The notes: generated by a model not told the origin, from the sequence alone. Positions 8,791 through 26,219 are shown, numbered from the stretch's first letter. The stretch is 64,000 bases of DNA from Planctomycetota bacterium (GCA_965223505.1 CBDCWP010000021.1:160001-224000); one strand, 5' to 3'. Numbers and translations are program-made.

Positions 8791-8956
8791 CGAACGCTGC
8801 AAGAGCTGCATGCCGGACGACTTGCTCCTGGAGGTCTTTGTTGTTCCGTTCCGAAAGCCCGCGGGAATTCTAACCGCGTTCGTCGGCGGGGGGCGCCGAT
8901 CGGCCGGGCCCCGGTCGAAGTCGCGTCCGCCGCAGCTTTCGGGCACGATGCAGACG

Positions 8957-10861: not shown

Positions 10862-11460
10862 TCCGCGGCGCGCTCGTTCTGTGCGGTGGTCACAGCACCC
10901 GCATGGGCGCGCCCAAGGCGCTGCTGCCGTTCGGCGAGGAGCTCATGTTGCAGCGCGTGGTGCGTCTCGTCTCGGAGGCCGTGACGGACGTCGTCGTGGT
11001 CGCGCGCCCCGGTCAGGAGATGCCGCCGCTTCCGAAACACGTGCGGGTCACCTACGACGAGATCCCCGATCAGGGTCCGCTCGGCGGCATCGCGCCGGGC
11101 CTGAAAGTCTCCCGCGCGGACGCGGTGTACGTAACCGGGTGCGACGTTCCGTTCTTGAGAACGGCCGTCGTCGACCTGCTCTTCGACCGGCTCGCGTCGA
11201 ACGACGTCGCCGTGTGCGAGACCGATGGGTTCACGCACCCGCTGGCGGCGGTCTATCGCGTCGGCGTGCTGCCCGTGGTCGAGAAGCTGCTGGCAACCGA
11301 GCGCCGGCGGCCGGTGTACCTCTTCGACCGGGTGCGGACGGTGCGCGTGAACGCGGCCGCGCTTCGGAAGGTCGATCCGAACCTCGACACGCTCGCGAAC
11401 CTGAACACACCGGAGGCCTACGAGGCGGCGCTGCAGTCGCTGTTGGGCGAGACGCCGTGA
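10858..11460 (+). CDS. mobA: molybdenum cofactor guanylyltransferase
   Basis: LCGGHSTRMGAPKALL, GPLGGI, CDVPF, NLNTPE; TTG overlaps the moeA stop. Confidence 0.9.
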   Translation: MIRGALVLCGGHSTRMGAPKALLPFGEELMLQRVVRLVSEAVTDVVVVARPGQEMPPLPKHVRVTYDEIPDQGPLGGIAPGLKVSRADAVYVTGCDVPFLRTAVVDLLFDRLASNDVAVCETDGFTHPLAAVYRVGVLPVVEKLLATERRRPVYLFDRVRTVRVNAAALRKVDPNLDTLANLNTPEAYEAALQSLLGETP

Positions 11461-11717
11461 TCCGGGTCGAGCTCTACGAGGTGGCGCGGCGGCTGGCAGG
11501 CGTCGCGAGCCTCGAGGTCGAAGCGTCGACCCTGGGCGAGGCGCTCCAGGCGGTCCGTTTGCGATACCCGGTGCTGGAGCCGGACGTGATCGTCGGCCGG
11601 CGCCTGGCGCCGCAGTGGCGCGCCAGCCGCAACGGCCGCGAGTGGATCGAGGATCCGGACACCCCGCTCGAGGTCGGTGACGCGCTCGTGCTCGTGAGCG
11701 CCTTGGCGGGCGGGTAG
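11457..11717 (+). CDS. moaD: MoaD/ThiS sulfur carrier
   Basis: 86 aa ubiquitin-like protein ending ALAGG; GTGA overlap with mobA. Confidence 0.85.
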   Translation: MIRVELYEVARRLAGVASLEVEASTLGEALQAVRLRYPVLEPDVIVGRRLAPQWRASRNGREWIEDPDTPLEVGDALVLVSALAGG

Positions 11718-11771
11718 CGGGAAGTCGAACGCGCTCCCGGCGTCCAAGTCGATGGTCACTGGGAGAGTCGC

Positions 11772-12653
11772 ATGCCGTCCAAGAGCGTCCTTGGTTGTGT
11801 TCTGTGTTGCGGGGCCGTCGCAGGGTTCCTCGCTTCGGCCTTCGTGCCGTGGGCGCCGGCCCACGCGGATGACGAGGAAACGGCGCGGCTGTACGTCAAC
11901 TGCCCCGAGGCCTCGGTGCAGCCGATCGTCGACTTCGTCGCGGAGCGGGGCGGCATAGTGCACGACATGGATTCGTTCAAGCGCCTGTTCGCGTCGCGGA
12001 GAGTCCCGCTGTTGCCGCCGCTGCAGTCGGGTGTCGACGTCATCACCGCGATCTACGAGTCTCTTGCCGCGGCCCGGCAAGAGGGCGAGGTGCTCGACGT
12101 CACGAGCTTGCACGTCCGCGAGCGACGGTTCCGCCTCACGGTGCGCATGTCGAGCTACGAGACGGCCGATGCGCTGCGCACGGCGCTCAACACCAACCCC
12201 TACCTGAGACACCGCATGGGGGAGGGCAACCGCGTCGAGCTCGGCAGCTCGTCGCGCACCAAGGACGGGCACGTCAAGCAGGACATCGCCGCGAAGCTGC
12301 CCGAGTCGGTCGGGGACGTCAGGGTTCCCGAGATCGTGCCGGACGTGAGCATTCGCGTCGCGGACGTCGACCGGATCGCCCTGAAGACCGACCTGCGTCT
12401 GATGCAGGCGGGCCCGGAGCGGCGCGATGCGAATCGAAGCCTCGGCGTGATGACGATCTCGCGTGAGTTCGTCTACGAGGCGACCGAGCTGGTGCGCCTG
12501 CGCGCGTTTCTCAAGCTGCTCGCCGAGCACCCGGACTTCACGGTGATCGACGTCCGCTTCACGATCGACGAGAAGGAATCGACGGCCGAGCGCCTGCTGG
12601 TCGGGAAGTCGACGGTGCGCGTCGCGCGCTACGGAGCCAATCCGCCGAAGTAG
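11772..12653 (+). CDS. exported hypothetical protein, paralog of the next gene
   Basis: signal peptide (AHA-D); shares CxxxxVQxIVDFVxxxGGxVHD with 12684..13559. Confidence 0.65.
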   Translation: MPSKSVLGCVLCCGAVAGFLASAFVPWAPAHADDEETARLYVNCPEASVQPIVDFVAERGGIVHDMDSFKRLFASRRVPLLPPLQSGVDVITAIYESLAAARQEGEVLDVTSLHVRERRFRLTVRMSSYETADALRTALNTNPYLRHRMGEGNRVELGSSSRTKDGHVKQDIAAKLPESVGDVRVPEIVPDVSIRVADVDRIALKTDLRLMQAGPERRDANRSLGVMTISREFVYEATELVRLRAFLKLLAEHPDFTVIDVRFTIDEKESTAERLLVGKSTVRVARYGANPPK

Positions 12654-12683
12654 GCGCGAGCTGCGACGTCCGCGGAGGGACGC

Positions 12684-13559
12684 ATGGGAAGGCATACGGT
12701 GCTCGCGCTCACGGCGGCAACGGCGCTCGCTCTCGTGGTGCTCGCCCCGAGCTGGTTGGACCGCTCCGCGGATGCGGACGGACAGCCGTCGACCGAGCTG
12801 GTCGTTCGGTGTGCACCCGACCGAGTGCAGTCGATCGTCGACTTCGTGACCCGGCAAGGCGGCACGGTGCACGACCGCGCGACCCTGGAGCCGCTGCGCG
12901 CGAGGGCACGCGGAGCCGCGCCCGGACTGCCGGCGATCAGGTCGATCATCCCGGTCTGGGACGGCCTGCACGAGACGCTCTCCGTCGTCAACGCAAGCGC
13001 CGGTCGGCATCCGGTCTCGCTCTCCCACGTGGACATCCAGGACCGTCGCATGCAGCTCACGGTCGAGACGCAAGACCGGAGTCTGATCGACGCGCTTCAA
13101 CGGGCCCTGCTGAAGCACCCGGTCGTCGCGGCGCGCGTCGCCGGCGCCAACCGTCCCGTCGAGCGCGCTACCGCGAGGAAGGACCGGAGCGGATCGTGGC
13201 GCGCCGACCTCACGGTTCATTTCGGGCGACCTGCCGAAGCGAAGCCGCCGACAGAGGACGCCGAGAGGACGATTCGCCTCGATGATCTGAAGACGGCATC
13301 CAAGCGTGCCGGGGTCGAGCTGATCTACGCGTCGAACGAGCACCTCGAGGCACATCGGCGCACCGGCCTCGCCACGATCTGGCGCGCGGTCACATACGCA
13401 CGCGTGGAGTCCGACGGTCTGCAATCGCTCTTGCGCGAACTCGAGTCGATCCGCGGCGTGAGCGTCGCCGTGCTTCGCGTTTCGGTCGATCCGGAGGGCG
13501 CCGCCGCGTTCGAGAAGGTCAACGTCCGCGTGGCCAGACGCATCCACTGGCGGGACTGA
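12684..13559 (+). CDS. exported or membrane-anchored hypothetical protein, paralog of the previous gene
   Basis: GGAGG RBS; N-terminal hydrophobic helix; shared motifs. Confidence 0.65.
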   Translation: MGRHTVLALTAATALALVVLAPSWLDRSADADGQPSTELVVRCAPDRVQSIVDFVTRQGGTVHDRATLEPLRARARGAAPGLPAIRSIIPVWDGLHETLSVVNASAGRHPVSLSHVDIQDRRMQLTVETQDRSLIDALQRALLKHPVVAARVAGANRPVERATARKDRSGSWRADLTVHFGRPAEAKPPTEDAERTIRLDDLKTASKRAGVELIYASNEHLEAHRRTGLATIWRAVTYARVESDGLQSLLRELESIRGVSVAVLRVSVDPEGAAAFEKVNVRVARRIHWRD

Positions 13560-13678
13560 GTTCCTGACGAACACGTGTCGATTGAAATCGCAGCGTTCGA
13601 CGTTGCGCGCCCGCGGCTATGCTGGTCCGGGGCAAGCGGCTACGTGAGGTGGTTGGAGCGCTCGACGTCTCGACCCGC

Positions 13679-15793
13679 ATGGTGCACGCGCAACGGAACC
13701 ACCGACGACCGAACCGGGGTCTGCTCGCCCTGGGACTCGCCGCTGCGCTTCTCACGGCGCTGCTCGGCTGCGGCGACGGCGAGCTCGATTTCGTCTTGCC
13801 CTCGGACGCCGTCTTCTCGGTCACCAACCCGGCGGGGATGCCCGTCGCCGGCGCGACCGTCTTCCTGGTGCCGGCATCGGATATCGACACCGGTGACGTC
13901 ACCGGAAACGACGTTCTCTCCGGCGCCGCCGAGACCCGCGACGAACCGCTCGAAGACGCCGTTCGCCTGCGCGGCGCCTCGTACCCGCGGGGCGTCACCG
14001 ACGCCGGCGGTCGCGTCCTCATCGCCGACGTTCCGTTCGGCACCTACTTCTGGTTCGTCCTGCCCGCGGCCGGCGACACCGAGCACCTTCCCGGTGGCGA
14101 AGGCTGCCGGCTCGCCCGGCAGAGCACGACGTTCCTGGGCACGACCACGTCGATCCGCCTCACGTCGCAGCCCTCCGCTGCGGCGGCCTTCGTCGGATCC
14201 ACGACCTGTCTGGCTTGTCACAGCGCGCACGGCGGCTTTCGTCAGCACGCACATCGACTCGCCTTCACGGTGCCGGGGCAGCTCTCGGCGCTGCAGGACG
14301 CGACGCGCTACCCGAACATCCAGGGCGGCTGGGCGACGTTCCTTCCCGCCGCCGTTCACACCGGCGGCACGCCCGTCTACTTCTCGGACTTCGACGGCGG
14401 GCGCGAAACCGACAAGTTCAAGACGTCGCTCAGCGATCCGCGCCCGGCCGAGACGCTCTTCGTGATCGCGTGGCTCTGGCGGGACACCGCGGACAACCGC
14501 TTCAAGATCACGCTCGAGAACGTCATCAACGCGATCGATCCACCGCGAACGCTCGTCGTCGAGCTGACCTACGGCGGGCCGTTGCACATGCAGCGCAGTC
14601 TCGTGAGCGTCCCGGGGCGCAACGGACGCTACCCACTGCTCCAGTGGCAGTCGGAAGGCGACGAGACGAAGTTCGACCGAACGCGCAAGGTGTTCCGCGA
14701 CTACCGACTCGACTCGTTCTGGAGCGCGGGCACGCAGACGTTCACCGACCCGCCGGTCGATACCGCCTTCGAGGGCAACTGCACCGGCTGTCACTCGAAC
14801 GGGTTCGAGCGCTTTCGGGACCCGGGCACCAACGAGTGGCTGTCGCGCGCCGTGTCCGACGTCGGCGGCGCTTTCGACATCGACGGCGACGGACCCGCCG
14901 ACGAGATCAACCTCGGCTGCGAGACCTGCCACGGCGCCGGCTCGGAGCACGTGGCCTGGGCGCAGGCCAACCCCGTCTCGTCGGCCGCGCGGTTCATCGT
15001 GTCGAACGCGTACTTGAGCCCGTCACGCGACATGCAGGTGTGCGGCCGCTGCCACGACCGCGTCGTCGGCAACGGCCCGCATCCCACGGGCGAGCCGCTC
15101 GATCCGCAGGGGCGGCGCGCCCGGCCCGGCATCAGCCGCATGCAGTTCCTCGCAAACCACGTCACGCGCAAGGGGCCCGATGCGGCCGACTATTGGAACG
15201 ACGACCTGCACAGCCGCAACCACTACCAGCAGTACGCCGACATGTTGAAGTCGAAGAAACACAGGAACGACCGCATCCTCACCACGTGCACGGACTGCCA
15301 CGAGAGCCACGGCAACGGCCCCTTCGTGCGGCATCTGCGCGCGGATCCCTCCGACGCGAACAGCGCGCTGTGCCAGCAGTGCCACCTGACCGACCACTTC
15401 CAACACATGTTCGACGAGACCGGCACGACCCACGCGGGCGACGCGACGACCTGCGTGCGCTGCCACCAGACATGGGCATCGCGCGCGGGCGCCGGACGGT
15501 ACGGGATCATCATCACCGGCGCCACCGGCACGGCGCTCGACCTTCAACGGACGTACTTCCAGAACGACCGACGCAGCCACCTCTTCCTCGGCGTACCGGG
15601 AAGACTGCATCCCGATGTCGCGGGCGTGCTTCCGGCGTTCGCCATGCCGATCCCGTTCACGAACGAGTGCGGGGCGGGCTGCCACAGCGTCGTCAATCTG
15701 CAGAACCTCAAACCGACAAACGGCGTCGAGATCGACGTCTCGCGCCGCCCGTTGCCGGACCTGGGACGGGGTGCATCGGGAGACGACCGATGA
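13679..15793 (+). CDS. multiheme c-type cytochrome lipoprotein (7 CxxCH + 1 CxxxCH) with N-terminal beta-sandwich
   Basis: lipobox LLGC; CLACH, CTGCH, CETCH, CGRCH, CTDCH, CQQCH, CVRCH, CGAGCH. Confidence 0.9.
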   Translation: MVHAQRNHRRPNRGLLALGLAAALLTALLGCGDGELDFVLPSDAVFSVTNPAGMPVAGATVFLVPASDIDTGDVTGNDVLSGAAETRDEPLEDAVRLRGASYPRGVTDAGGRVLIADVPFGTYFWFVLPAAGDTEHLPGGEGCRLARQSTTFLGTTTSIRLTSQPSAAAAFVGSTTCLACHSAHGGFRQHAHRLAFTVPGQLSALQDATRYPNIQGGWATFLPAAVHTGGTPVYFSDFDGGRETDKFKTSLSDPRPAETLFVIAWLWRDTADNRFKITLENVINAIDPPRTLVVELTYGGPLHMQRSLVSVPGRNGRYPLLQWQSEGDETKFDRTRKVFRDYRLDSFWSAGTQTFTDPPVDTAFEGNCTGCHSNGFERFRDPGTNEWLSRAVSDVGGAFDIDGDGPADEINLGCETCHGAGSEHVAWAQANPVSSAARFIVSNAYLSPSRDMQVCGRCHDRVVGNGPHPTGEPLDPQGRRARPGISRMQFLANHVTRKGPDAADYWNDDLHSRNHYQQYADMLKSKKHRNDRILTTCTDCHESHGNGPFVRHLRADPSDANSALCQQCHLTDHFQHMFDETGTTHAGDATTCVRCHQTWASRAGAGRYGIIITGATGTALDLQRTYFQNDRRSHLFLGVPGRLHPDVAGVLPAFAMPIPFTNECGAGCHSVVNLQNLKPTNGVEIDVSRRPLPDLGRGASGDDR

Positions 15794-16410
15794 TCCGCGT
15801 TTGTCTGCTCCTTTGCGCGACGTCGGCCGTGGTGGCCAACCTCTTGCCCGCGTCGCGCCATGCTCCCGCCGCGGCCGACGAAGAGAAACCGTGCTTCATC
15901 GGCGCCGCGAAATGCAAGCACTGCCACTTCCGGCATCACAAGACGTGGAAGCAAAGCGGCCTCGCCCAGGCGTTCGAGGCGCTGAAGCCGGGCGCGGCCG
16001 CCGAGAAGAAGAGGTCGAGCGGGCTGGACGTGAAGAAGGACTACACGAAGGACCCGAAGTGCCTGAAGTGCCACACGACCGGCTACGGCACCCCCACCGG
16101 CTATCCCGTGCCGGTGGCCGATGGGTGGACGGCCGAAGAGCAAGAGCGCGCGAAGATCAATGAAGGCGTGACGTGCGAGGTCTGCCACGGCCCGGGCAGC
16201 CTCTACGCGCCCTACAAGCGCAAACACAAGGACTACAAGCGCTCCGCCATCGTCGAGCGCGGCGCGATCGCGCCGGTGTCGTCCAAGACGTGCGACCAGT
16301 GCCACGTGCGCGAGTGTCCGACGATGGGGTCCGACTACCGTTTCGACTTCGCCGCCAAGCGCCGCTCGAAGCGCATTCACTCACGCGTGCGGCTCAAACA
16401 CCCGCACTGA
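15790..16410 (+). CDS. tetraheme cytochrome c554-like periplasmic protein
   Basis: signal peptide; FIGAAKCKHCH, CLKCHTTG, CEVCHGPGS, CDQCH; ATGA overlap. Confidence 0.9.
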   Translation: MIRVCLLLCATSAVVANLLPASRHAPAAADEEKPCFIGAAKCKHCHFRHHKTWKQSGLAQAFEALKPGAAAEKKRSSGLDVKKDYTKDPKCLKCHTTGYGTPTGYPVPVADGWTAEEQERAKINEGVTCEVCHGPGSLYAPYKRKHKDYKRSAIVERGAIAPVSSKTCDQCHVRECPTMGSDYRFDFAAKRRSKRIHSRVRLKHPH

Positions 16411-16426
16411 GGAGAGAACCCACCCG

Positions 16427-17950
16427 TTGACCCGGCACGCCCCCCTGCCGCTTCGCGTCGTCTGTGCCTTCCTCGCCCTCGCCGCCGGCGCGCTGGCCGC
16501 GACGGCCGACGACGACCTGCCGGCGCCGGTCCAACCGCCGCCGCCGACGCCCCTGGAGGCCGAGTCGCCTGGCGAAGCCGACAGCGAGGACGTCGCCGAC
16601 GACGACGAGGAAGCGATCCTCGACGAGACGTTCGACGAGGAACCGCTCGGCGCGTTCGACGAGGACGAGCTTCCGGTCCTGACCGCCGCACCGCCAAGGC
16701 TCACCTTCTCCGAGCTGTTTCACGGCTCGATCCGGGTGCGCTACCACGGCCGCTTCACGGGCAGTGACTCGGACAACGACGGGTTTGCGTATCTGCGCCT
16801 GAACTTCCGCGACGAGGACGACGTCGGTCTCTCGGGCTCGTTCTACGGCCGCCTGAGCCACGACATCGACGGGCACGGCGACGACGGCAGCTTCTTCGTC
16901 TTCGACTCGGTCACCGACTCGTTCACGCACCGCGTGAACGGACGCGTCTACCACGCCTACGTGGACTACCGCCCGTGTTGCGGAACGCCCCTCAACCGTG
17001 TCCGTGTCGGCCGGCAGCAGATCGACGGCGGCGAGTTCTTCCTCATGGACGGCGTCCACGTGCGCCTGAGCGAGTACGGACTCCGCCGGGTGCAACTTTC
17101 GGTGTTCGGCGGCGTTCCCACGCACCTGTTCGAAGGCTCGCCGGACGGCGACGTCATCGCCGGGGCGTCGCTCTCCGTGCGACCCTGGGGCGGCGCCGAG
17201 GCGCGCGCGGACTTCGTGTACCTCGAAGACGACAACCAGTTCTACGGCGAGGTCGAGAACGATCTGTTGACCCTGTCACTGCGGCAGACCGTCGGCCCGT
17301 TCGCGACGGCGCGCGCCTCCTACCAGCACTTCAACGGCGAACCGCGGTACGGCGCTTTCGCGTTCGACGCGTATCTGCCGAGGCGCCGCGCGCTCGTCCG
17401 CGGTGCGTTCCGGGGCCTGTTCACCGCGCAGAACGAGCAGGTGTTCGACCTCGACCCGTTCTTCGCCGTTGCGCAGCGGCTCGAGCCGTACTTCGACGCG
17501 CACCTGGCCGTCTCGAAGGAGCTCGGACGCTGCTTCCACGTCGAAGGCGGGATCGCGACGCGCCGGCTCTTCGACGACGCCGACGAGGGCACGTTCAATC
17601 GCGAGTACCAGCGCTACCACCTGAGCCTCTCGTCGTTCGATTGGCCGTGCCACGCGTTGTCCATGTCGCTCACCGGCGAATGGTGGCAGGGCGACGAAGA
17701 CATCGCGTCCGTGACGTTCGATCTCGACTACAGGCCGAGCGAGCGCTGGCGCATTCGCGCGGGAACGGACTTCGCACTGTATCGATTCGACTTCTTTGGC
17801 AACCGCGAACGGCAGAACGCACGCGGCGTGTTCGTACGCGCGACGTACCGGCCCGGCGAGCGTTGGCGCTTCGACGGACGGGTGCGCGTCGACCACGACG
17901 ACTTCGACACGTACACGACCGTTCGGTTCGGCGCGGAGATGGACTTCTGA
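16427..17950 (+). CDS. outer-membrane beta-barrel, putative porin of a porin-cytochrome complex
   Basis: GAGGAG RBS; signal peptide; acidic N-terminal extension; many aromatic-rich alternating strands; ends GAEMDF. Confidence 0.8.
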   Translation: MTRHAPLPLRVVCAFLALAAGALAATADDDLPAPVQPPPPTPLEAESPGEADSEDVADDDEEAILDETFDEEPLGAFDEDELPVLTAAPPRLTFSELFHGSIRVRYHGRFTGSDSDNDGFAYLRLNFRDEDDVGLSGSFYGRLSHDIDGHGDDGSFFVFDSVTDSFTHRVNGRVYHAYVDYRPCCGTPLNRVRVGRQQIDGGEFFLMDGVHVRLSEYGLRRVQLSVFGGVPTHLFEGSPDGDVIAGASLSVRPWGGAEARADFVYLEDDNQFYGEVENDLLTLSLRQTVGPFATARASYQHFNGEPRYGAFAFDAYLPRRRALVRGAFRGLFTAQNEQVFDLDPFFAVAQRLEPYFDAHLAVSKELGRCFHVEGGIATRRLFDDADEGTFNREYQRYHLSLSSFDWPCHALSMSLTGEWWQGDEDIASVTFDLDYRPSERWRIRAGTDFALYRFDFFGNRERQNARGVFVRATYRPGERWRFDGRVRVDHDDFDTYTTVRFGAEMDF

Positions 17951-19008
17951 TGAACACGCCCGCACGAAAATGCGTGATCGGACTCCTGCTGTTCACCGTC
18001 TATCTGGTGGGCTGCCGCCTGTTCGCCCCGCCGGAGTGGCGCCCGGGCAGCGCACGCGCGCCGGTCGAGTTCGTCGGTGGACCGCGCATGGACCACGCCG
18101 CGCACGTCGAGCGCGGTCTCGCGTGCGCCGACTGCCACGCGCCCGATCCCAGGACGGGCGAACCCGGATCGCCTTCCCGCGACGACTGCGCGCAGTGTCA
18201 CGACGAGATCGACGAAGCCTGGCCGGCGCAGAAACGCGTCGCCACCGCGTTCTTCCGACCCGACGGAACGCCCCGATGGCGGCGCGCCGTCGCGGACTAC
18301 GACCCCGAGGTCATCTTCGATCATCGCGGACACGGCGCAATGAGCTGCCTCTCATGCCACGGCGCGGTGACGCGCCAATCGCGACGGGTGGCGGGCGAGT
18401 TGCACACGATGGACCAATGCATGCACTGCCACGAACGCCAGACGGCCGCGAACGAGTGCGCGACGTGCCATCGCGTCCTGCGCGACGACAAGGCGCCCGC
18501 GAACCACCGGTACCTGTGGAAGGAGCGCCACGGGCAGATCGTTCGTAATCACGGATCGATGGAGGCCGGCCGCTGCGACATCTGCCATCGCGACGCGTCG
18601 TATTGCGACGACTGCCACCAGGACGAGCCGCCGCGCGACCACACGGCGCTATTCCGGATCCGCACCCACGGCGTTCACGCGGCCATGGACCGTCAGAAGT
18701 GCGCGACGTGTCACATGACCGACTTCTGCCAGCGCTGCCACGAGAACACGCCGCCGCGCTCGCACCGCGGCGTCTTCGCAACGGGACGCAACACGCACTG
18801 CGTGCAGTGCCACTTTCCGGTGACCCAGACCCGCTCGTGCCGCGTGTGCCACTTCGAGAATCCGACGCACGACACGGCGCCGGATCAGCCGCCGTCGCAC
18901 TTCCCGGGGATGAGCTGCCGCAACTGTCACAACGCCATCGGCCAGGGCGGCGCGCGTCCGCTGCGTCACCTCGACAACGGGCAAGTTTGCGAGTCTTGCC
19001 ACCGCTAG
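17950..19008 (+). CDS. 13-heme c-type cytochrome lipoprotein (c3/c7-like repeats)
   Basis: lipobox LVGC; 13 CxxCH in 352 aa; MDHAAH and FDHRGH distal-His motifs; TGATG overlap with the porin gene. Confidence 0.9.
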   Translation: MNTPARKCVIGLLLFTVYLVGCRLFAPPEWRPGSARAPVEFVGGPRMDHAAHVERGLACADCHAPDPRTGEPGSPSRDDCAQCHDEIDEAWPAQKRVATAFFRPDGTPRWRRAVADYDPEVIFDHRGHGAMSCLSCHGAVTRQSRRVAGELHTMDQCMHCHERQTAANECATCHRVLRDDKAPANHRYLWKERHGQIVRNHGSMEAGRCDICHRDASYCDDCHQDEPPRDHTALFRIRTHGVHAAMDRQKCATCHMTDFCQRCHENTPPRSHRGVFATGRNTHCVQCHFPVTQTRSCRVCHFENPTHDTAPDQPPSHFPGMSCRNCHNAIGQGGARPLRHLDNGQVCESCHR

Positions 19009-19018
19009 CGGACTTGGC

Positions 19019-19396
19019 CTAGGTCTCATGGATCGACGGGACCACGAAAAACACTGGGCCGAAGAACTGCGCCATGGCGATCAAGGGCACCAAGATCCGG
19101 AACGACCACCGCTTCGTCTTGTGATGGAACCGGCGCATGGCGATGTAAGCGCCGATGGCGCCGCCGAAGACGACGTAAAACCAGAGCGTCGCCTCGGCGA
19201 TGCGCCGCTGTCCGCGCTGCGCCCGCGCCTTGTCACTCCGAAACAGCGCGAATGCGAAATACGACATCAAGACCCCCAGCATCCAGAGGAAGACCAACAT
19301 GTTCTCGGGCGCATGCCAGTGCTTCGGCACGGTCAAGCAGAAGATCCCGATGACGGCGGCGGAGCCGAGGATGTACTTGGCGTCGTGGCGGTTCAC
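19019..19396 (-). CDS. DUF1294 membrane protein
   Basis: DKARAQRGQRRIAEATL, GGAIGAYIAMRRFHHKTK. Confidence 0.8.
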   Translation of the reverse strand: MNRHDAKYILGSAAVIGIFCLTVPKHWHAPENMLVFLWMLGVLMSYFAFALFRSDKARAQRGQRRIAEATLWFYVVFGGAIGAYIAMRRFHHKTKRWSFRILVPLIAMAQFFGPVFFVVPSIHET

Positions 19397-19431
19397 GCGC
19401 ACATCTTGCCGGAGCGGCCGGATCACGCGCC

Positions 19432-19446
19432 TAGAATGCGTACATG
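19432..19446 (+). promoter_or_regulatory. -10 box positioned for a leaderless aor transcript
   Basis: TAGAAT-N6-ATG with no SD. Confidence 0.5.
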
Positions 19447-21255
19447 CCCCCCGGTGGATACCACGGCCGCTACGGTCACTTCGACCTGGAGCGAACCGAG
19501 GGGGCGCTGCGTCCGCTCTCCGACGACGTGCTGCGGCGCTTCCTCGGCGGATCGGGTCTGGGGGCATGGCTCCTCATGCAAGAGAGCGCAGGCGGCTACG
19601 ACCCGTTGGGGCCCGAAGCGCCGATCGTCATCGCGCTCTCGCCGCTGGTCGGTTCGCCGCTCACGACCAGCGCGAAGTTCGCCGTGGTCACGAAGTCGCC
19701 GCTGACGGAGCGCATCAACGACGCGCTCTCGAGCGACCGTTTCGCCATCGAGCTGAAGCGCGCCGGCATGGACGCATTGGTCGTCACCGGCTGGTGCGAC
19801 GACTGGTCGGTACTGGTCGTGGACGACGGCGCGATGCGCCTGGAGCCGGCGGACGACCTCGTCGGTCTGTCGTCGCTCGAGGCCGAGGAACGCCTGCGCA
19901 AGAAACACGGCGCGACGTTTCGCTTCTTCGGCATCGGCCCCGCGGGCGAAAACGGCGTGCGCTACGCGTCGGCGTCGGGCGACAGCCGGCACGCCGGCCG
20001 CGGCGGCACCGGCGCCGTCTTCGGATCGAAGCGGCTCAAGGGCGTCCTCGTGCGCGGGACGACGCCATGCGAGGTGGACGACCGTGAAGCGGTGCTCGCG
20101 CTGGCCAAGGAGCTGTCGGCGAAGTCGCTGGGCGCCGGGACCGCGAAGTACCGCGAGCTCGGGACGGTCGCGAACGTCCTCGTGATGAACCGGCTCGGGG
20201 CGCTGCCGACCCGCAACTTCAAGGAGGCCACGTTCGAAGGCGCCGAGCAGATCTCCGGCGAGGCGTTTCACACGACGCCCGACAAGATGCGCAAGCACTG
20301 CGCCGCGTGCACGATCGGCTGCGAGCACGTGTTCGCGTCCCGGAGCGGCCGGCAGGTGCGCCTGGAATACGAAGGCATCTTCGCGCTCGGCCCGCTGTGC
20401 GGCATCGACGACCGGGACGTGATCCTCGAAGCGGCGGCACGCTGCGACGACCTCGGGCTCGACGTCATCTCCGCCGGTGGCACGATCGCCTTCGCCATGG
20501 AGTGCAGGGAGAAGGGCCTGCTCGAGAACGCACCGTCCTTCGGCGACGGGGACGGATTGCTGTCGTTGCTGGACGACATCGCGCACCGGCGCGGACTGGG
20601 CGACCTGCTCGCGGAGGGCTCGCGGCGCGCGGCGCTGATCGTCGGCGGCGGCGCCGAGCACTTCGCGTGTCACGTCAAGGGACTCGAGCTGCCGGGGTAC
20701 GAACCGCGCGCGCTGCAGGCGATGGGACTCGGTCTCGCCGTGGGTGCGCGCGGCGCGGATCACAACCGCTCGGGCGCCTACGAGGAGGACTTCCGCTCGG
20801 GCGCGGACCGCTTCGTGGCCGACGACGCCAAGGGCCCTGCGGCGGCGAACAGCGAGACGCGGGCGGCGATCCTGGACAGCCTGATCCTGTGCAAGTTCCT
20901 GCGCGGCGTGTTCGAGGACCTCGAGGCGGAGAGCGCGCGGATGCTGTCCGCGATCACCGGCTGGGACGTCACGGCCGCCCCGTTGCATCGAACAGGCGAA
21001 CGGATCGTGACGCTGAAGAAGCTCTTCAATCTGCGCGAGGGCTGGGAGCGGTCGGAAGACACCCTCCCACAACGGTTTCTGAGCGAAGCCCTGGACGGCG
21101 GCGCTTCGTCCGGGGCCGCGTTGAGCCCCCACGACCTCGACCGTATGATCGTAAGCTACTACCGCGCGCGCGGTTGGACCGACGACGGCCGGGTTCCCGC
21201 AGAGCGGATCGAGAGCCTCGGGCTGAGTGACGTCCAGCCGGCGCCGAAGAGGTAG
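19444..21255 (+). CDS. aor: aldehyde:ferredoxin oxidoreductase (AOR family, tungstopterin)
   Basis: TKSPLT, GPAGE, GRGGTGAVFGSKRLK, CAACTIGC, EYE, DDLGLD, KGLELPGYEPR, DSLILC. Confidence 0.93.
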   Translation: MPPGGYHGRYGHFDLERTEGALRPLSDDVLRRFLGGSGLGAWLLMQESAGGYDPLGPEAPIVIALSPLVGSPLTTSAKFAVVTKSPLTERINDALSSDRFAIELKRAGMDALVVTGWCDDWSVLVVDDGAMRLEPADDLVGLSSLEAEERLRKKHGATFRFFGIGPAGENGVRYASASGDSRHAGRGGTGAVFGSKRLKGVLVRGTTPCEVDDREAVLALAKELSAKSLGAGTAKYRELGTVANVLVMNRLGALPTRNFKEATFEGAEQISGEAFHTTPDKMRKHCAACTIGCEHVFASRSGRQVRLEYEGIFALGPLCGIDDRDVILEAAARCDDLGLDVISAGGTIAFAMECREKGLLENAPSFGDGDGLLSLLDDIAHRRGLGDLLAEGSRRAALIVGGGAEHFACHVKGLELPGYEPRALQAMGLGLAVGARGADHNRSGAYEEDFRSGADRFVADDAKGPAAANSETRAAILDSLILCKFLRGVFEDLEAESARMLSAITGWDVTAAPLHRTGERIVTLKKLFNLREGWERSEDTLPQRFLSEALDGGASSGAALSPHDLDRMIVSYYRARGWTDDGRVPAERIESLGLSDVQPAPKR

Positions 21256-21272
21256 CGGAGGTCGAGCCCGAC

Positions 21273-24107
21273 ATGAACTCGCCGTTGACCGCGGACACGG
21301 AAGCCACCGAAGCGCCGGCCAAGACCGTCACGCTGGAGATCGACGGACAAGAGGTCACCGTCCCCGAAGGCACCACCGTCTGGCAGGCCGCCAAGGACAT
21401 GGGCATCGACATTCCGGTGCTTTGCCACGATCCCAAGCTCGATCCCGTCGGCGTGTGCCGCATGTGCGTCGTCGAGGTCGAAGGTGCGCGCACCCTGGTC
21501 GCGTCGTGCGTGCGCGACTGCGAAGACGGCTTGAAGGTCAAGACGGGCTCCGAGACCGTCGTGCGCAACCGCAAGGTGCTCACCGATCTGTTGATGGCGG
21601 ATCAGGACGCGACCAGCCGCCGCGACGAGAAGACCAACGACGACGAGCTGTTCAGCCTCGCCCGCGAGTTCCAGGTCGACGGCTCGCGTTGGCCCCGCGG
21701 CAACGGCCGTCCCGACGACGACTCGTCGCCCGTCATCTCGGTGGATCACCAGGCCTGCATCCTTTGCGACCGCTGCATTCGCGCCTGTGACGACATCCAA
21801 TTCAACATGGTCATCGGCCGCACCGGCAAGGGCTATGCGACGCGCATCGGCTTCGACCTGAACAACCCGATGGGCGACTCGACCTGCGTGGAGTGCGGCG
21901 AGTGCGCATCGGCGTGTCCGACCGGGGCGCTCACCAACAAGCCGATCACCGTGCCGATTCGGCCGCCCGAGACGCTCGAGAAGGTCGACTCCGTCTGCCC
22001 CTATTGCGGCGTCGGCTGCGCGCTGACGTTCATGGTCGACAGAGAAGAGAACAAGGTCGTCTACGCCGAGGGCCGTGACCCGAGCGCCAACGAGGGGCGG
22101 CTGTGCGTCAAGGGCCGTTACGGCTTCGACTACGCGACGCACAAGCACCGGCTGACCAAGCCCCTGATCCGCAAGGAGAGCTCGTACCCGAAGGGGCCGC
22201 TCAGCGCGAACATGCAGCGCCGGGACGACGGCACGCGCGGCGAGAGCGTGTATCCCGACTACGACGAGGCGCTGAACCACTTCCGGGAAGCGACGTGGGA
22301 CGAGGCCCTCGATCTCGTGGCAAGCAAGCTCAAGTCGATTCGCGACGAACACGGCCCGCAGGCGCTCGCCGGCTTCGGCAGCGCGAAGTGCTCGAATGAA
22401 GAGGCGTATCTCTTCCAGAAGATGATCCGCGCGGTGTTCGGCACGAACAACGTGGACCACTGCACGCGGCTTTGCCACGCGTCCAGCGTGGCCGCGCTGC
22501 TCGAGACGATCGGCTCGGGCGCGGTCACGACCGTGTACGGCGACATCGAGAACTCCGACGTCGCGCTCGTGACGGGCACGAACACGACCAGCAACCACCC
22601 CGTCGCAGCGACCTTCTTCAAGGAGGCCGCGAAGAACGGCACGAAGCTCATCATCGTGAACCCGCACCGGCCCGAGCTGGCCGATCACGGCGAGTACGTT
22701 CGCATCCGGCCTGGCAGCGACGTCTCCTTCTACAACGCCATCATGAACGTCATCCTCGAGGAGGGCCTCGAGGACCGCGCGTACATCGAGAAGTTCACGG
22801 AGAACTTCGATGCGCTCAAGGAGGTCGTTGCGCGCTACACGCCCGAGGTCGCGGCGCCCATCTGCGGCATCTCGGCCGACGAGATCCGCGACCTGGCGCG
22901 CACCATCGGCAACGCGAAGGCGATGATCATCTTCTGGGGCATGGGCATCTCGCAGCACGTGCACGGCACCGACAACGCGCGCAGCCTCATCTCGCTGTGC
23001 CTGATGACGGGCAACGTCGGCCGCCCGGGTACGGGCCTGCATCCGCTGCGCGGCCAGAACAACGTCCAGGGCGCCAGCGACGCGGGCTTGATCCCGATGG
23101 TCTACCCCGACTACGTGCCGGTCAACGACCCCGACGCGCAGAAGCGCTACGAGGAAGCCTGGGGCGTCTCGCTCGATCCGAATCCCGGCAAGACGGTGGT
23201 CGAGATCGCGCACGCCGCGGTCGAGGGTGAGCTCAAGGGCATGTACATCATGGGCGAGAACCCGTTCATGTCCGACCCGAACGTGAAGCACGCCCGCGAG
23301 GGGTTCATGAACCTCGACTTCCTCGTCGTCCAGGACATCTTCCTGACCGAGACCGCCGAGGTCGCCGACGTCGTGCTGCCCGCGACGAGCTACTTCGAGA
23401 AGACGGGCACCTACACGAACACGGACCGGCGCGTGCAGATCGGCGCGACGACGCTCGAGCCGCCCGGTGAAGCCCGGCTGGACTGGGAGATCCTGTGCGA
23501 GGTCATGACGCGCATGGGCTACGAGCAGTCGTACGACGACATCGAGGACGTCTTCGTCGAGTTCAGCGAGATGACGGAGAGCTACAAAGGCCTGCGCTAC
23601 CGCCACCTGGGCGGCCCGGGCAAGCTCTGGCCGTGCGCCGATCCCGACAACTCCGACGGCGAGGTCGTGCTGTTCGGTGACGGCTTCCCGACGCCGTCGG
23701 GCCGCGGCAAGTTCTCGCCCGCCGAGGTCATCCCGCCGGCCGAGCTTCCCGACGAGGAGTACCCGTTCGTCCTGAACACGGGGCGGACGCTGCAGCACTG
23801 GCACGGCGGCTCGATGACGCGTCGCGCAAAGGTGCTCGACCAAATCAACCCCGAGGCGTTCTGCGAAATCCACCCCGACGACATGGCGTCGCTCGGGCTC
23901 GAGGACGGCGGCATGGTGCGCTTGAGCACGCGCCGCAACTCCATTCGCGTGAAGGCCGTCGCGAGCACGAAGACCTCGAAGGGCAGCGTGTTCATGCCGT
24001 TCCACTACCGCGAGGCGGCGGCGAACCTGCTGACGACCGACACGCTCGACCCGATCGGCAAGATCCCATCCTTCAAGTTCGCAGCGCTCAAGGTCGAGAA
24101 GGCGTGA
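21273..24107 (+). CDS. fdhF: formate dehydrogenase alpha subunit (cytoplasmic, Cys-ligated bis-MGD)
   Basis: [2Fe-2S] and 2x[4Fe-4S] N-domain, CPYCGVGC, DHCTRLCH, LRGQNNVQG, MPFHY; no Tat signal. Confidence 0.93.
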   Translation: MNSPLTADTEATEAPAKTVTLEIDGQEVTVPEGTTVWQAAKDMGIDIPVLCHDPKLDPVGVCRMCVVEVEGARTLVASCVRDCEDGLKVKTGSETVVRNRKVLTDLLMADQDATSRRDEKTNDDELFSLAREFQVDGSRWPRGNGRPDDDSSPVISVDHQACILCDRCIRACDDIQFNMVIGRTGKGYATRIGFDLNNPMGDSTCVECGECASACPTGALTNKPITVPIRPPETLEKVDSVCPYCGVGCALTFMVDREENKVVYAEGRDPSANEGRLCVKGRYGFDYATHKHRLTKPLIRKESSYPKGPLSANMQRRDDGTRGESVYPDYDEALNHFREATWDEALDLVASKLKSIRDEHGPQALAGFGSAKCSNEEAYLFQKMIRAVFGTNNVDHCTRLCHASSVAALLETIGSGAVTTVYGDIENSDVALVTGTNTTSNHPVAATFFKEAAKNGTKLIIVNPHRPELADHGEYVRIRPGSDVSFYNAIMNVILEEGLEDRAYIEKFTENFDALKEVVARYTPEVAAPICGISADEIRDLARTIGNAKAMIIFWGMGISQHVHGTDNARSLISLCLMTGNVGRPGTGLHPLRGQNNVQGASDAGLIPMVYPDYVPVNDPDAQKRYEEAWGVSLDPNPGKTVVEIAHAAVEGELKGMYIMGENPFMSDPNVKHAREGFMNLDFLVVQDIFLTETAEVADVVLPATSYFEKTGTYTNTDRRVQIGATTLEPPGEARLDWEILCEVMTRMGYEQSYDDIEDVFVEFSEMTESYKGLRYRHLGGPGKLWPCADPDNSDGEVVLFGDGFPTPSGRGKFSPAEVIPPAELPDEEYPFVLNTGRTLQHWHGGSMTRRAKVLDQINPEAFCEIHPDDMASLGLEDGGMVRLSTRRNSIRVKAVASTKTSKGSVFMPFHYREAAANLLTTDTLDPIGKIPSFKFAALKVEKA

Positions 24108-24916
24108 GCCGTAGCCTCGCGCTGCTCCTGGCGCTCGCGGTCTCTCTGGGCGCTTGCGGGGACGGCGCGAAGCGCGTCCGCCTCGTCACGACGACGTCGA
24201 CGCACAACTCGGGTCTCCTCGAGCACTTGCTCGCCGAATTCACACCGCAGACCGGCATCGAGGTCGATGTCCTGGCCGTGGGAACGGGCAAGGCGCTCGC
24301 GCAAGGGCGGCGCGGCGACGCGGACCTGCTGCTCGTACACGCGCGCGAGCTCGAAGACGCGTTCCTCGCCGAGGGCCATGCGATCGAGCGGCGCGATGTG
24401 ATGTGGAACGACTTCGTAATCGTCGGGCCGCCGTCCGACCCGGCGGGCATTCGCGGCATGAAGGAACCGGCGGCGGCGCTCGCGAAGATCGCGAAGACGG
24501 GGGCGCGCTTCGCGAGCCGTGGGGACCGGTCGGGCACCCACATGCGAGAGCTCGCGCTCTGGAAGGCGTCCGGTGTCGATCGCACGTCCAACGGCGGTTA
24601 CGTGGAGGCGCGGCTCGGCATGGGCGGCTCGTTGATCTACGCGGACGAGAAGCGCGCGTACCTGCTCGCCGACCGCGGCACGTACCTCTCGCACATGAAG
24701 CGCCTCGATCTCGAGCTCGACATTCTCGTAGAGGGCCACGCCTCACTTCGCAATCCCTACGGCGCGCTGTTGATCGACCCAGTGCGACACCCGGTCGGCA
24801 ATGCGGAGGGCGCCCGCAAGCTGTTCGACTGGTTGACCTCGCCGGCCGGTCAGGCGCGAATCGCTTCGTTCCAGGTTGACGGCAATCCGCTCTTCCATCC
24901 CAATGCCGCCAAGTAG
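24104..24916 (+). CDS. tupA: tungstate ABC transporter binding lipoprotein
   Basis: lipobox LGAC; TTTSTHNSGLL, GTGKAL, SRGDRSGTH, DRGT. Confidence 0.9.
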   Translation: MSRSLALLLALAVSLGACGDGAKRVRLVTTTSTHNSGLLEHLLAEFTPQTGIEVDVLAVGTGKALAQGRRGDADLLLVHARELEDAFLAEGHAIERRDVMWNDFVIVGPPSDPAGIRGMKEPAAALAKIAKTGARFASRGDRSGTHMRELALWKASGVDRTSNGGYVEARLGMGGSLIYADEKRAYLLADRGTYLSHMKRLDLELDILVEGHASLRNPYGALLIDPVRHPVGNAEGARKLFDWLTSPAGQARIASFQVDGNPLFHPNAAK

Positions 24917-24942
24917 CTCGTGATCAAAATAGGAGATCGACC

Positions 24943-25638: not shown

Positions 25639-26219
25639 TGCGCATGCGGAACATCCGCGTCGTGTTCGGCGACGTCGTCGGCCTGTGGTTGGACGAGCTC
25701 GACATCGAATCCGGCGAACGACTCGGCGTCACGGGCCCGAACGGCTGCGGCAAGTCGACGCTGATGCGGGTGCTCGCGGGTCTGCAGGCGGTCACGTCGG
25801 GAACGGTGCAGGGGCTGCCGGCGCCCGGCCGCATCACGCTCGTGCATCAGCGCCCCTACTTCTTCCGCGGCACCGCGCGAGACAACGTCGTCTACGCGTT
25901 GAAGACGGCAGGGAAGCCAACGTCGGAGGCGGACGCGTGGCTGGAACGGCTCGGCGCCGCCGAGCTCGCCGATCGAACGGCGGGCGTGCTCTCGGGCGGC
26001 GAGCGCCGCCGCGTCGCGGTCGCGCGCGCGCTGGCGATCCGGCCGGAGATCCTGCTGCTCGACGAGCCGTTCGCCGCGCTCGACGACGAGGGCCTCGCGA
26101 CGATGAACGCCGCGATCGGAGCGTTCGAAGGCACGCTGGTGGTCACGGCGCCGGACCTGAAAGACGCGCCGGTCGCGCGGACGGTCGAGCTTCGTCCCGC
26201 CGAACGTCGAAACGGATAG
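25635..26219 (+). CDS. tupC: tungstate ABC transporter ATPase
   Basis: GPNGCGKST, LSGGE, LLLDEP; operon position. Confidence 0.85.
   Translation: MMRMRNIRVVFGDVVGLWLDELDIESGERLGVTGPNGCGKSTLMRVLAGLQAVTSGTVQGLPAPGRITLVHQRPYFFRGTARDNVVYALKTAGKPTSEADAWLERLGAAELADRTAGVLSGGERRRVAVARALAIRPEILLLDEPFAALDDEGLATMNAAIGAFEGTLVVTAPDLKDAPVARTVELRPAERRNG

Follow-up and report, generated by a model that had tools for sequence, protein, structure and literature searches.

MtrB is a barrel of 26 strands, and the MtrA inserted in it is a soluble periplasmic protein. The pairing of a multihaem cytochrome of ~330-350 aa with an outer-membrane barrel, as in MtrCAB, MtoAB and PioAB (6R2Q), recurs in the locus analysed here. 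The Geobacter conduits OmbB-OmaB-OmcB, ExtABCD, ExtEFG and ExtHIJKL resemble this locus, by description, in having a periplasm-side multihaem cytochrome, a barrel and lipoprotein redox proteins; their barrel has been described as 18-22-stranded and their core as conserved, with the outer lipoprotein replaced non-orthologously (PMC6148476). PCC3 and PCC4 were recognised by He et al. 2017 (PMC5566968) from gene neighbourhoods as putative porin-cytochrome clusters, and their definition includes a conserved five-helix inner-membrane protein having two WX3HX13H motifs. In the same account, median haem numbers are 34 and 21 for PCC3 and 4, 5 and 10 for PCC4, which includes a tetrahaem and of which one subgroup includes Planctomycetes.

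Sediments, soils and wastewater are rich in Planctomycetota; in the literature searched, extracellular electron transfer by members of the phylum is considered almost exclusively in anammox bacteria. Shi et al. 2014 (PMC4245776) described in silico a two-gene pcc cluster in Kuenenia, found by BLAST at E<0.01 and placed as a distant outlier. Its cytochrome has 12-14 haems in 338-344 aa, and such a two-gene pair was argued to be able to span the membrane alone. It has been reported that a Brocadia ortholog is expressed during electrode-dependent anammox (Shaw et al. 2020, PMC7188810; bioRxiv 10.1101/855817). The locus described here contains homologues of both genes of such a pair together with two further cytochromes, and we consider it probable that the four genes encode a porin-cytochrome conduit that carries electrons across the outer membrane.

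Layout of the cassette

The cassette occupies positions 13679-19008 of the window, the whole stretch of 64,000 nucleotides that was analysed from a Planctomycetota bacterium. It consists of four genes on the same strand, overlapping or closely spaced, with 8, 4, 0 and 13 haem motifs:

13679..15793, + strand: g1, 8-haem lipoprotein, 704 aa; seven CXXCH and one CX3CH, lipobox
15790..16410, + strand: g2, c554-type tetrahaem, 206 aa; four CXXCH, Pfam PF13435
16409..16414, + strand: GAGGAG, Shine-Dalgarno-like hexamer 12 bases 5' of the g3 TTG start, read from the sequence
16427..17950, + strand: g3, outer-membrane barrel, 507 aa; TTG start, zero haem motifs, C-terminal Phe
17950..19008, + strand: g4, 13-haem lipoprotein, 352 aa; 13 CXXCH, lipobox

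Of the 26 CXXCH motifs in the whole window (six frames, 127,996 codons), 24 fall in g1, g2 and g4, besides which the cassette holds one CX3CH. The g1/g2 junction is an ATGA overlap (15790-15793). The g2 stop (16408-16410) is overlapped by GAGGAG and separated by 16 bases from the TTG of g3 (16427), and g3 and g4 meet in TGATG (17948-17952), where the stop of one and the start of the other share one base. Gene calls and motif count thus confirm the preliminary description of four linked genes with 8/4/0/13 haem motifs, two lipoboxes and a Phe-ending barrel, and the junctions claimed there (ATGA, 16-bp gap with GAGGAG, TGATG) were all re-read in the sequence.

The barrel and its 13-haem partner

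The product of g3 had been described as a beta-barrel, and the AlphaFold2 model (mean pLDDT 72.3, pTM 0.66) agrees with this assignment, predicting about 22 strands. A signal peptide and an acidic, Pro-rich disordered stretch (residues 26-92) precede the barrel (residues ~98-506), which ends in the C-terminal Phe. DSSP assigns 24 strand elements to residues 98-506 of the model; because two of them, each of four residues, extend one hairpin, the barrel is read as 22-stranded and not 24-stranded. The model has no plug domain, its predicted outer loops do not exceed ~23 residues, and its C-alpha diameter is about 39-42 Å by geometric estimate. In structural comparison the model aligns best with 22-strand TonB-dependent transporter barrels (342-353 residues, rmsd 4.7-4.8, Z 15.7-16.7), the top one being 5t3r_D (Z 16.7, 353 residues aligned), and MtrB (6r2q_B) is found at rank 35 with Z 12.6, a generic likeness at the level of the fold only. 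No Pfam or NCBIfam barrel family reaches its cut-off with g3, nor is there a match to MtrB_PioB/TIGR03509 at E<=0.1. The g3 family itself comprises 869 representative clusters at E<=1e-3.

The partner g4 has its lipobox (L-V-G-C) at residues 19-22 and one haem per 27.1 aa, or per ~25 aa in the mature protein. All 16 aligned members of its family (16/16) retain the lipobox Cys, the 13 CXXCH and 13 additional His without exception, and the extra His would allow all haems to be bis-His coordinated. In g4 an ActA/QrcA-like N-terminal half is followed by a C-terminal half made of di-haem modules. In searches against the PDB, the g4 profile matches ActA chains of Alternative Complex III (ACIII) at 1.3e-23 (8k9e_A) to 2.9e-19, a clear homology for the N-terminal half; however, no Act genes flank g4, and the two ActA-ActB-ActC(NrfD)-ActD operons of the genome lie on other contigs. 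The match to MtrA (6r2q_A) is weak (3e-5), and against the DmsE/MtrA decahaem model (TIGR03508) g4 reaches 29.1 bits, far under the cut-off of 192.2. This score, together with the lack of an MtrB/PioB match, upholds the earlier designation as a non-Mtr porin-cytochrome cassette. Further differences from MtrCAB are the 13 haems and lipid anchor of g4, and a barrel that has about 22 strands and, at 507 aa, is shorter than the 649 aa of chain 6r2q_B. The model of g4 is poor (mean pLDDT 60.2, C-terminal half <50). We propose that g4 is the wire through the barrel, in which it would be inserted. Two features of g4 count against a conduit, namely that it is lipid-anchored, unlike MtrA, and that its N-terminal half resembles a subunit of an inner-membrane complex.

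The barrel family is present in 86 of 401 sampled Planctomycetota species genomes, about a fifth. According to the coordinate tables, a g4-family match adjoins the barrel in 83 of the 85 other barrel-positive genomes and lies downstream of it in 80 of the 85; three barrel-positive genomes have a distant subtype only, with a short cytochrome upstream. The position of g4 directly downstream of the barrel is found in 17/17 related loci (two cut by contig ends), and a downstream position is found in 12/12 loci of a second set that includes the window's own and in 4/4 anammox-type loci. On this gene order, barrel and g4 are a strictly coupled pair that forms the constant core of the cassette. A constant core with a swapped outer partner, as described for the Geobacter conduits, is also seen in the loci of this family. 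In contrast to those conduits, the barrel-coupled cytochrome is here itself a lipoprotein and the outer partner is OcwA-like, not OmcB- or ExtCD-like.

Four genomes with HZS_alpha (hydrazine synthase) carry homologues of barrel and g4 side by side. By tblastn their barrels are 27-28% identical to g3 (E 1e-31 to 1e-36) and their cytochromes, of 338-341 aa and 13-14 haems, are about 31% identical to g4 (E about 1e-40 to 1e-42); in profile searches the barrels reach E-values of 1e-81 to 1e-91 and the cytochromes about 1e-68 to 1e-78. Within the family tree, the anammox-type barrels group as a single clade with support 100/100, and in their loci, over 14-16 kb, no further ORF with at least three haem motifs stands beside the pair. 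By its descriptors (protein size, number of haems, a layout of two genes and a genome with hydrazine synthase) and not by accession, this pair fits pcc kuste4024/4025 of Candidatus Kuenenia stuttgartiensis. A porin-like barrel gene is followed directly by a cytochrome of ~340 aa with 13-14 CXXCH, both homologous to g3 and g4, and the 352 aa and 13 CXXCH of g4 compare with the 338-344 aa and 12-14 CXXCH published. There are two differences. The anammox pair stands alone, whereas here g1 and g2 belong to the same gene string, an expanded form. Shi et al. (PMC4245776) call the Kuenenia cytochrome periplasmic, whereas a lipobox is present on every barrel-partner cytochrome aligned here (4/4 anammox-type members, 16/16 aligned members).

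The cassette had been put forward as a distinct conduit type. For the core this is not supported, since barrel and g4 are homologous to an isolated two-gene pair in hydrazine-synthase-positive genomes; because that pair fits Kuenenia pcc, itself described from sequence only, the core would be an ortholog of a complex already on record. The family of barrel and 13-haem partner is therefore already known from anammox bacteria, through its sequences alone, and our literature search found no experiment on any member. The present analysis places the anammox pair in a family with members in roughly one in five of the species genomes sampled and defines the constant core against the swapped parts. 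It also adds that the barrel-partner cytochrome is in every case, as predicted from its lipobox and profile, a lipoprotein whose N-terminal half resembles ActA. With only two genes, the core is a small target that could be expressed and tried in liposomes as a conduit of neither the Mtr nor the Geobacter type, and the profiles of the two families may serve as markers for reading electroactivity from metagenomes. It is possible, and we offer this tentatively, that the anammox Pcc is a stripped-down version of a Planctomycetota-wide (perhaps PVC-wide) conduit, the wire of which is an ActA-derived, lipid-anchored cytochrome that has reached 13, 15 or 17 haems by di-haem insertions. If so, the cell could reduce solids as well as soluble compounds at its surface.

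The accessory cytochromes g1 and g2

In g1 a lipobox (L-L-G-C, residues 28-31) and a haem-free N-terminal region (~170 aa) are followed by an OcwA/OmhA-like haem core. Its CX3CH is CGAGCH at residue 664. The same position is CXXCH in 4/11 homologue loci (callable starts only, one duplicate pair included), which speaks for a genuine eighth haem-binding site. The g1-family profile matches OcwA (6i5b_A, 1.6e-9) and OmhA (6qvm_A, 9.3e-9), profile positions 345-603 aligning with their haem cores, and g1 is placed in the OcwA/OmhA/MccA/c554 clade of the NrfA-HAO superfamily. OcwA and OmhA are cell-surface terminal reductases of the Gram-positive Thermincola and Carboxydothermus, and OcwA itself reduces nitrite and hydroxylamine. 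Their family is characterised by two penta-coordinate haems, each under a His-His motif. One such motif could be aligned in the g1 family, S-H-H-Q-Q-Y with the S-H-H of OcwA, and it is taken as the probable distal His-His pocket of a penta-coordinate haem; in the present genome the site reads N514-H515-Y516, i.e. Tyr replaces the second His. Thus g1, OcwA (6I5B) and OmhA (6QVM) have homologous haem cores and are all proposed to be terminal surface redox proteins. However, g1 has 8 haems and not 9 or 11, carries a lipoprotein anchor and the haem-free N-terminal region, sits in a diderm beside a barrel, and lacks the second motif His in this genome.

Strong homologues of g1 occur in 17 other genomes, all of them barrel-positive and none outside the barrel-positive set, and in 14 of the 17 the distance to the barrel is no more than about 2.2 kb. 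Where a start could be called, all are lipoproteins (11/11 loci, one duplicate pair), several with poly-Gly behind the Cys. We propose that g1 is the surface-side terminal redox protein, a position relative to the membrane that we infer. The earlier suggestion of a terminal or catalytic unit would fit a haem core matching those of two Gram-positive cell-surface reductases.

The clade of g1, the alignment of its family motif with the S-H-H of OcwA, the reduction of nitrite and hydroxylamine by OcwA and the ActA-like N-terminal half of g4 could also be accommodated without any conduit. The lipoproteins would then face the periplasm, g1 would be a catalytic NrfA/OTR/MccA-like reductase of a soluble substrate, fed by g2 and g4, and the barrel would be a pore through which that substrate diffuses in. 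We regard this as very unlikely, for it is g4, not g1, to which the barrel is coupled, anammox-type genomes have the pair alone, and MtrC-like cytochromes replace g1 in other lineages. The Tyr in place of the second His of the pocket in the present genome also speaks against it, and a plugless 22-strand barrel with short loops, as modelled, would be an unusually wide open pore.

The second gene, g2, matches Pfam Cytochrome_C554 (PF13435) with 66.5 bits (cut-off 20.8, E 4.3e-18) and cytochrome c554 in the PDB (1bvb_A) at 1.7e-15, which bears out the label c554-like given to it earlier. With the NCBIfam equivalog Cyt554_Nsmonas it scores 76.6 against a cut-off of 400. Since g2 is above the cut-off of the former family and far below that of the latter, it is c554-like but not the Nitrosomonas protein. 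A homologue is found in 11/17 related loci, and in 17/17 homologue loci (three duplicate pairs) the protein has a Sec-type signal peptide, no lipobox Cys and 4 CXXCH. We propose that g2 is a soluble periplasmic shuttle, a role already suggested for it and one that a soluble, Sec-exported protein may well fill.

Gene company and direction of electron flow

In 13 loci 136 ORFs were called, of which 65, from 12 loci, were scanned for gene company. Among these 12 relatives' loci, a fusion of a multihaem protein with a cytochrome b561 domain (CbcL architecture) is present in four, an NapC/NirT-domain multihaem protein in three and CcsBA/ResB haem lyases in four. Large cytochromes with strong matches to MtrC/MtrF domains II/IV, a further likeness to MtrCAB, are present in seven. 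Outside anammox bacteria, the pair comes with swappable accessories, which is new: here g1 and g2, and in relatives CbcL-like or NapC-like inner-membrane cytochromes and MtrC-like cytochromes.

The cassette described here is flanked by two unknown secreted paralogues, Mo-cofactor genes, a DUF1294 gene and AOR. None of the flanking genes is an inner-membrane gene or a CbcL-, ImcH- or CymA-like quinol oxidase, and the genome, which is 92.5% complete, has no match to the CbcL-like protein of a close relative. That its own cassette has no adjoining inner-membrane gene counts against a conduit. By their descriptions, PCC4 resembles the cassette in its tetrahaem and Planctomycetes subgroup; however, the haem numbers of PCC3 and PCC4 differ from those found here, and no flanking gene is the five-helix protein.

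In the conduit that we favour, we infer where g1 and g4 lie relative to the membrane, that g4 is inserted in the barrel, which enzyme serves at the inner membrane and which way the electrons flow. Menaquinol would be oxidised at the inner membrane, here likely by the enzyme of one of the two ACIII operons and in relatives by a multihaem protein, CbcL-like or NapC-like, whose gene adjoins the pair. Electrons would then be ferried across the periplasm by g2 and taken over the outer membrane by g4 in the lumen of the plugless barrel, barrel and g4 forming the core of the machine, with the ActA-like half of g4 probably as the periplasmic docking end. At the surface, g1 would be the redox protein in contact with the acceptor or donor outside the cell.

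Sequence alone cannot tell inward from outward flow. The same machine might run inwards, from extracellular Fe(II), Mn(II), reduced humics or a partner cell through g1, g4 and g2 to a cbb3 oxidase, or uphill through ACIII, as in MtoAB/PioAB-type conduits of iron oxidisers. The genome has cbb3-type oxidase subunits and the two ACIII operons, parts needed downstream of an uptake conduit, and the absence of the above quinol oxidases beside the cassette points the same way, as does the finding that many Fe(II) oxidisers carry porin-cytochrome clusters (He et al. 2017, PMC5566968). Nevertheless, we consider inward flow rather unlikely. Relatives have CbcL-like and NapC-like quinol dehydrogenases and MtrC-like cytochromes next to the pair, proteins best known from metal reducers, and the anammox pair has been discussed for outward transfer (Shaw et al., bioRxiv 10.1101/855817).

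The four-gene cassette and its surroundings

The window (G+C ~69%) contains four adjoining genes, here termed g1 to g4 and together the cassette:

13679-15793, + strand: g1, 8-haem lipoprotein of 704 aa; 7 CXXCH haem motifs and one CX3CH; lipoprotein signal peptide (LLGC)
15790-16410, + strand: g2, c554-type tetrahaem cytochrome of 206 aa; 4 CXXCH
16427-17950, + strand: g3, barrel protein of 507 aa; TTG start; 0 CXXCH; Sec signal peptide; C-terminal Phe
17950-19008, + strand: g4, 13-haem lipoprotein of 352 aa; 13 CXXCH; lipoprotein signal peptide (LVGC)

The genes g1 and g2 overlap in ATGA, a 16-base gap with GAGGAG separates g2 from g3, and g3 and g4 share one base inside TGATG. All six frames of the 64-kb window hold 26 CXXCH motifs, 24 of which are inside the cassette genes. 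This arrangement had been reported in the preliminary description, and its gene calls, junctions, haem motifs, lipoboxes and terminal Phe are borne out throughout. The cassette is quite probably a porin-cytochrome conduit, in which g4 would be the wire associated with the barrel, g2 a shuttle in the periplasm and g1 the outer redox partner. The same functional picture had been proposed earlier, and the homologies that we found agree with it.

Mo/W genes lie on both sides of the cassette (8450-11460 and 19444-26219). Their products are MobA, a fusion of MoeA with a PBP-like domain, an aldehyde:ferredoxin oxidoreductase, a formate dehydrogenase of FdhA type that has a 2Fe-2S domain at its N-terminus, and a set made up of a binding protein and an ABC ATPase. 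No inner-membrane redox gene adjoins the cassette. Other features of the region are:

11772-12653, + strand: unkA, just upstream of the cassette
12684-13559, + strand: unkB, tandem paralogue of unkA
27479-28444, - strand: ferrochelatase, farther along from the cassette
28786-30471 and 30729-32741, - strand: two large proteins that contain carboxypeptidase-regulatory-like beta-sandwich domains

The products of unkA and unkB (29% identity, E 7e-25) are ~290-aa proteins with signal-peptide-like N-termini that match no Pfam or NCBIfam family. They were ruled out as members of the cassette, a homologue of either being present in 0 of 17 related loci. An Rfam scan of the window gave no match. Scans of 11400-19700 detected no promoter-like site and a single terminator-like one, fewer than shuffles predict. 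An Atlas look-up of g1 returned two look-alike clusters having CarboxypepD_reg (94% of members); g1 itself has no CarboxypepD_reg match in Pfam.

The barrel and its putative haem wire

Comparison of g3 with Pfam and NCBIfam places it in no family above cut-off; there are only weak matches to autotransporter and TonB-receptor barrels, and none to MtrB/PioB. In the AlphaFold2 model of g3, built on 11 sequences (pLDDT 72.3, pTM 0.66), a signal helix precedes a disordered stretch, and residues 98-506 hold 24 DSSP strand elements, counted here as 22 strands. The disordered stretch, residues 26-92 (window 16502-16702), is rich in acidic residues and Pro, with 23 Asp/Glu, 12 Pro and a single basic residue out of 67. 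The N-terminal extensions of the homologues are Pro/Ala-rich and variable in length. The acidic extension of g3 may act as a periplasmic tether.

In an exhaustive structural comparison, 22-strand TonB-dependent transporter barrels are top-ranked (5t3r_D, Z 16.7 over 353 aligned residues with an rmsd of 4.7; BtuB and Cir, Z ~15.7), 24-strand ushers and 18-strand OccK channels reach Z ~16, and MtrB (6r2q_B) is found at rank 35 with Z 12.6. Foldseek returned generic barrels only (TM 0.30-0.43), and the best match of the barrel profile in the PDB has an E of 0.22. In TonB-dependent transporters, a plug domain of the same protein fills the barrel. The model of g3 is devoid of a plug domain and its outer loops are predicted to be short, with at most ~23 residues. 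A simple geometric estimate of the C-alpha diameter is 39-42 Å for 22 strands as compared to 46-50 Å for 26 strands, and a cytochrome may fit in the lumen.

A word-index search with the barrel returned 10 relatives only, and its repeat with a 40-row alignment the same 11 proteins. The rarity suggested by this search is false, because an exhaustive profile search of 1.84 billion representatives found 869 barrel clusters at E<=1e-3 (447 at E<=1e-30). Among 158 proteins of the family, 148 end in Phe and none contains CXXCH. The barrel is present in 86 of 401 genomes evenly sampled from Planctomycetota (58 of 243 high-quality genomes and 66 of 287 genera). Titled records come from Planctomycetota MAGs, except for one unclassified 'bacterium' MAG and one Omnitrophica MAG, and all 10 representatives checked by name are 'hypothetical'. 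An ESM Atlas look-up pointed to unnamed clusters of Nitrospirota and Deferribacterota, which are leads only.

The barrel gene is followed directly by a g4 homologue in 17 of 17 loci of the genome_contigs set (contig ends truncate two of these loci), in 12 of 12 loci of a second set that includes the window's own, and in 4 of 4 loci from anammox-type genomes, i.e. those carrying hydrazine synthase. These sets are not independent because the collections overlap (for example, loci L007 and L045 are identical). Comparison by eye of the match coordinates of the barrel and g4 profiles shows a g4-family match beside the barrel in 83 of 85 other barrel-positive genomes, downstream in 80. The exceptions are G275, with barrel fragments at contig ends only, and G380, with the two matches on different contigs. 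That the cassette is a purely periplasmic enzyme module is a less likely reading. Genomes G033, G088 and G128 have only a distant subtype (G033:C2:87267-89098, G088:C233:206-2010 and G128:C95:129151-131153), also seen as second loci in G232 and G351, in which a short cytochrome covering g4 profile positions ~110-300 only is located upstream of a weak barrel match (E 1e-10 to 1e-23); the gene order is therefore reversed.

Alignment of 16 full-length members of the g4 family reveals that the lipobox Cys, 13 CXXCH motifs and 13 further His are all invariant, with the final haem motif at the extreme C-terminus. The extra His are therefore enough for thirteen bis-His haems. The mature length of g4 is 331 residues, or ~25 residues per haem. 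A di-haem module of ~50 residues is repeated within g4 itself, and one or two such modules are inserted in homologues with 15 or 17 haems (loci L002, L004, L005, L007, L008 and L010; alignment A2, columns ~250-331), so that the length of the putative wire varies stepwise in the family. Profile positions ~12-210, which make up the N-terminal half, are homologous to ActA, a pentahaem subunit of Alternative Complex III (8k9e_A at 1.3e-23; also 6f0k_A, 6lod_A and 6btm_A). The match to MtrA (6r2q_A, E 3e-5) is far weaker, and that to the QrcA model (2.6e-12) is well under the model cut-off. The AlphaFold2 model of g4 (mean pLDDT 60.2, C-terminal half <50) is usable for the N-terminal half only, and a Foldseek search with it yielded nothing but weak matches to ActA (E 1.7e-3 at best).

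In many Planctomycetota genomes the g4 profile also matches ORFs of ~170-320 aa that contain a single in-frame TGA (for example G350:C13:76518-76955 and G292:C16:120551-121048). Multihaem ORFs with a weak match to the NCBIfam '(seleno)protein ExtKL' model are present in the genome that the window comes from. These ORFs may encode selenocysteine-containing multihaem cytochromes.

Relation to the anammox pair

The genome family f33 of our sample comprises complete genomes of 2.9-4.4 Mb. The hydrazine-synthase alpha domain is present in all four f33 genomes tested and absent from the window's genome. In each of the four, a barrel homologue (27-28% identity to g3, tblastn E 1e-31 to 1e-36) is followed immediately by a g4 homologue (~31% identity, 338-341 aa, 13-14 CXXCH, lipobox present), and no other ORF with at least three haem motifs was found in these loci of 14-16 kb. 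A maximum-likelihood tree of 33 barrels, rooted at the midpoint only, groups the four anammox-type barrels in a 100/100 clade neighbouring two non-anammox rows (95/94) and places the window's barrel in a separate 100/100 clade of 11 rows.

The available text of Shi et al. (2014, PMC4245776) describes a two-gene pcc cluster of Candidatus Kuenenia stuttgartiensis, with a cytochrome of 338-344 aa and 12-14 haems, that is distantly related to the Geobacter Pcc groups and was proposed to cross the outer membrane with no additional outer cytochrome. Two genes, size and haem number are the descriptors by which this pair matches the anammox-type homologues of g3 and g4. The accessible parts of Shaw et al. 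name it kuste4024/4025 (bioRxiv 10.1101/855817; PMC7188810) and report expression of the Brocadia ortholog during electrode-dependent anammox (bioRxiv 10.1101/855817); a full-text search for the locus tags gave this preprint as the only match. The core of the cassette matches the Kuenenia-type pair, and the family is therefore already in print, from sequence and expression data only. The earlier proposal of a new conduit type thus fails for the core, since the barrel and g4 belong to this published family. A search of the supplement of PMC10732223 gave nothing bearing on the cassette. Four points were not found in the literature searched: that the pair is spread across the phylum, that its putative wire is a lipoprotein of ActA ancestry, that the haem number of this wire varies via di-haem modules, and that the pair has an OcwA-like cap in non-anammox lineages.

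Accessory cytochromes and proposed electron partners

The protein g2 is a c554-type tetrahaem cytochrome (Pfam 66.5 bits; PDB 1bvb_A at 1.7e-15). At 17 loci (including three duplicate pairs), its homologues all carry an ordinary Sec signal peptide that lacks a lipobox. A g2 homologue occurs in 11 of 17 related loci, one of the 17 being without any upstream DNA. Homologues of g1 with a callable start are lipoproteins in 11 of 11 loci (one duplicate pair), several with a poly-Gly run behind the lipobox Cys, and the eight haem sites are all invariant in an 11-row alignment. Positions 345-603 of the g1 family profile match OcwA (6i5b_A, 1.6e-9) and OmhA (6qvm_A, 9.3e-9). According to the available texts of PMC9250108 and PMC6703420, these are multihaem reductases on the cell surface of Thermincola and Carboxydothermus, and they group with MccA and cytochrome c554 in a single clade of the NrfA-HAO superfamily. 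Within the g1 family, the motif S-H-H-Q-Q-Y is aligned with S-H-H of OcwA, which we regard, assuming a numbering offset of 29, as the His-His 281/282 pocket above a penta-coordinate haem; g1 of the window's genome has N-H-Y at this position. Strong g1 homologues (E<=1e-79) are present in 17 other sampled genomes, all barrel-positive, and lie within ~2.2 kb of the barrel in 14 of them, upstream or downstream.

For the neighbour survey, 136 ORFs were called in 13 related loci and 65 of them, from 12 loci, were scanned, leaving out L010 (a near-copy of L002), the already identified core genes and short or overlapping ORFs. Four of the 12 loci have a multihaem cytochrome joined to a membrane domain of the cytochrome b561 type, an architecture that the available text of bioRxiv 10.1101/2022.08.31.506072 gives for the Geobacter quinol oxidase CbcL. 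NapC/NirT-domain multihaem proteins are present in three loci, NrfD in one, CcsBA/ResB haem lyases in four, and large cytochromes strongly matching MtrC/MtrF domain II/IV in seven. All five classes are absent from the two anammox-type loci in the scan. The family thereby resembles the Geobacter conduits, for which the accessible text of Jiménez Otero et al. (PMC6148476) describes a barrel and inner cytochrome that are kept and an outer lipoprotein that is swapped.

The window's genome (92.5% complete) encodes cbb3 oxidase subunits and two Alternative Complex III operons, one of them next to nitrate-reductase subunits of NarH/NarI type. The cbb3 oxidase and Alternative Complex III are the likeliest inner-membrane partners of the cassette. 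Such partners fit electron flow in either direction, and an inward, metal-oxidising mode of the conduit is a real alternative. The CbcL-like protein of a close relative has no match in this genome, where b561 gives a sub-threshold match only, beside an HAO-like octahaem gene. This HAO/HDH-like ORF (G000:C24:32417-34760; loci L074 and L084; a weak match with 75.6 bits where the cut-off is 900) and the adjoining b561 ORF make up a haem module separate from the cassette.
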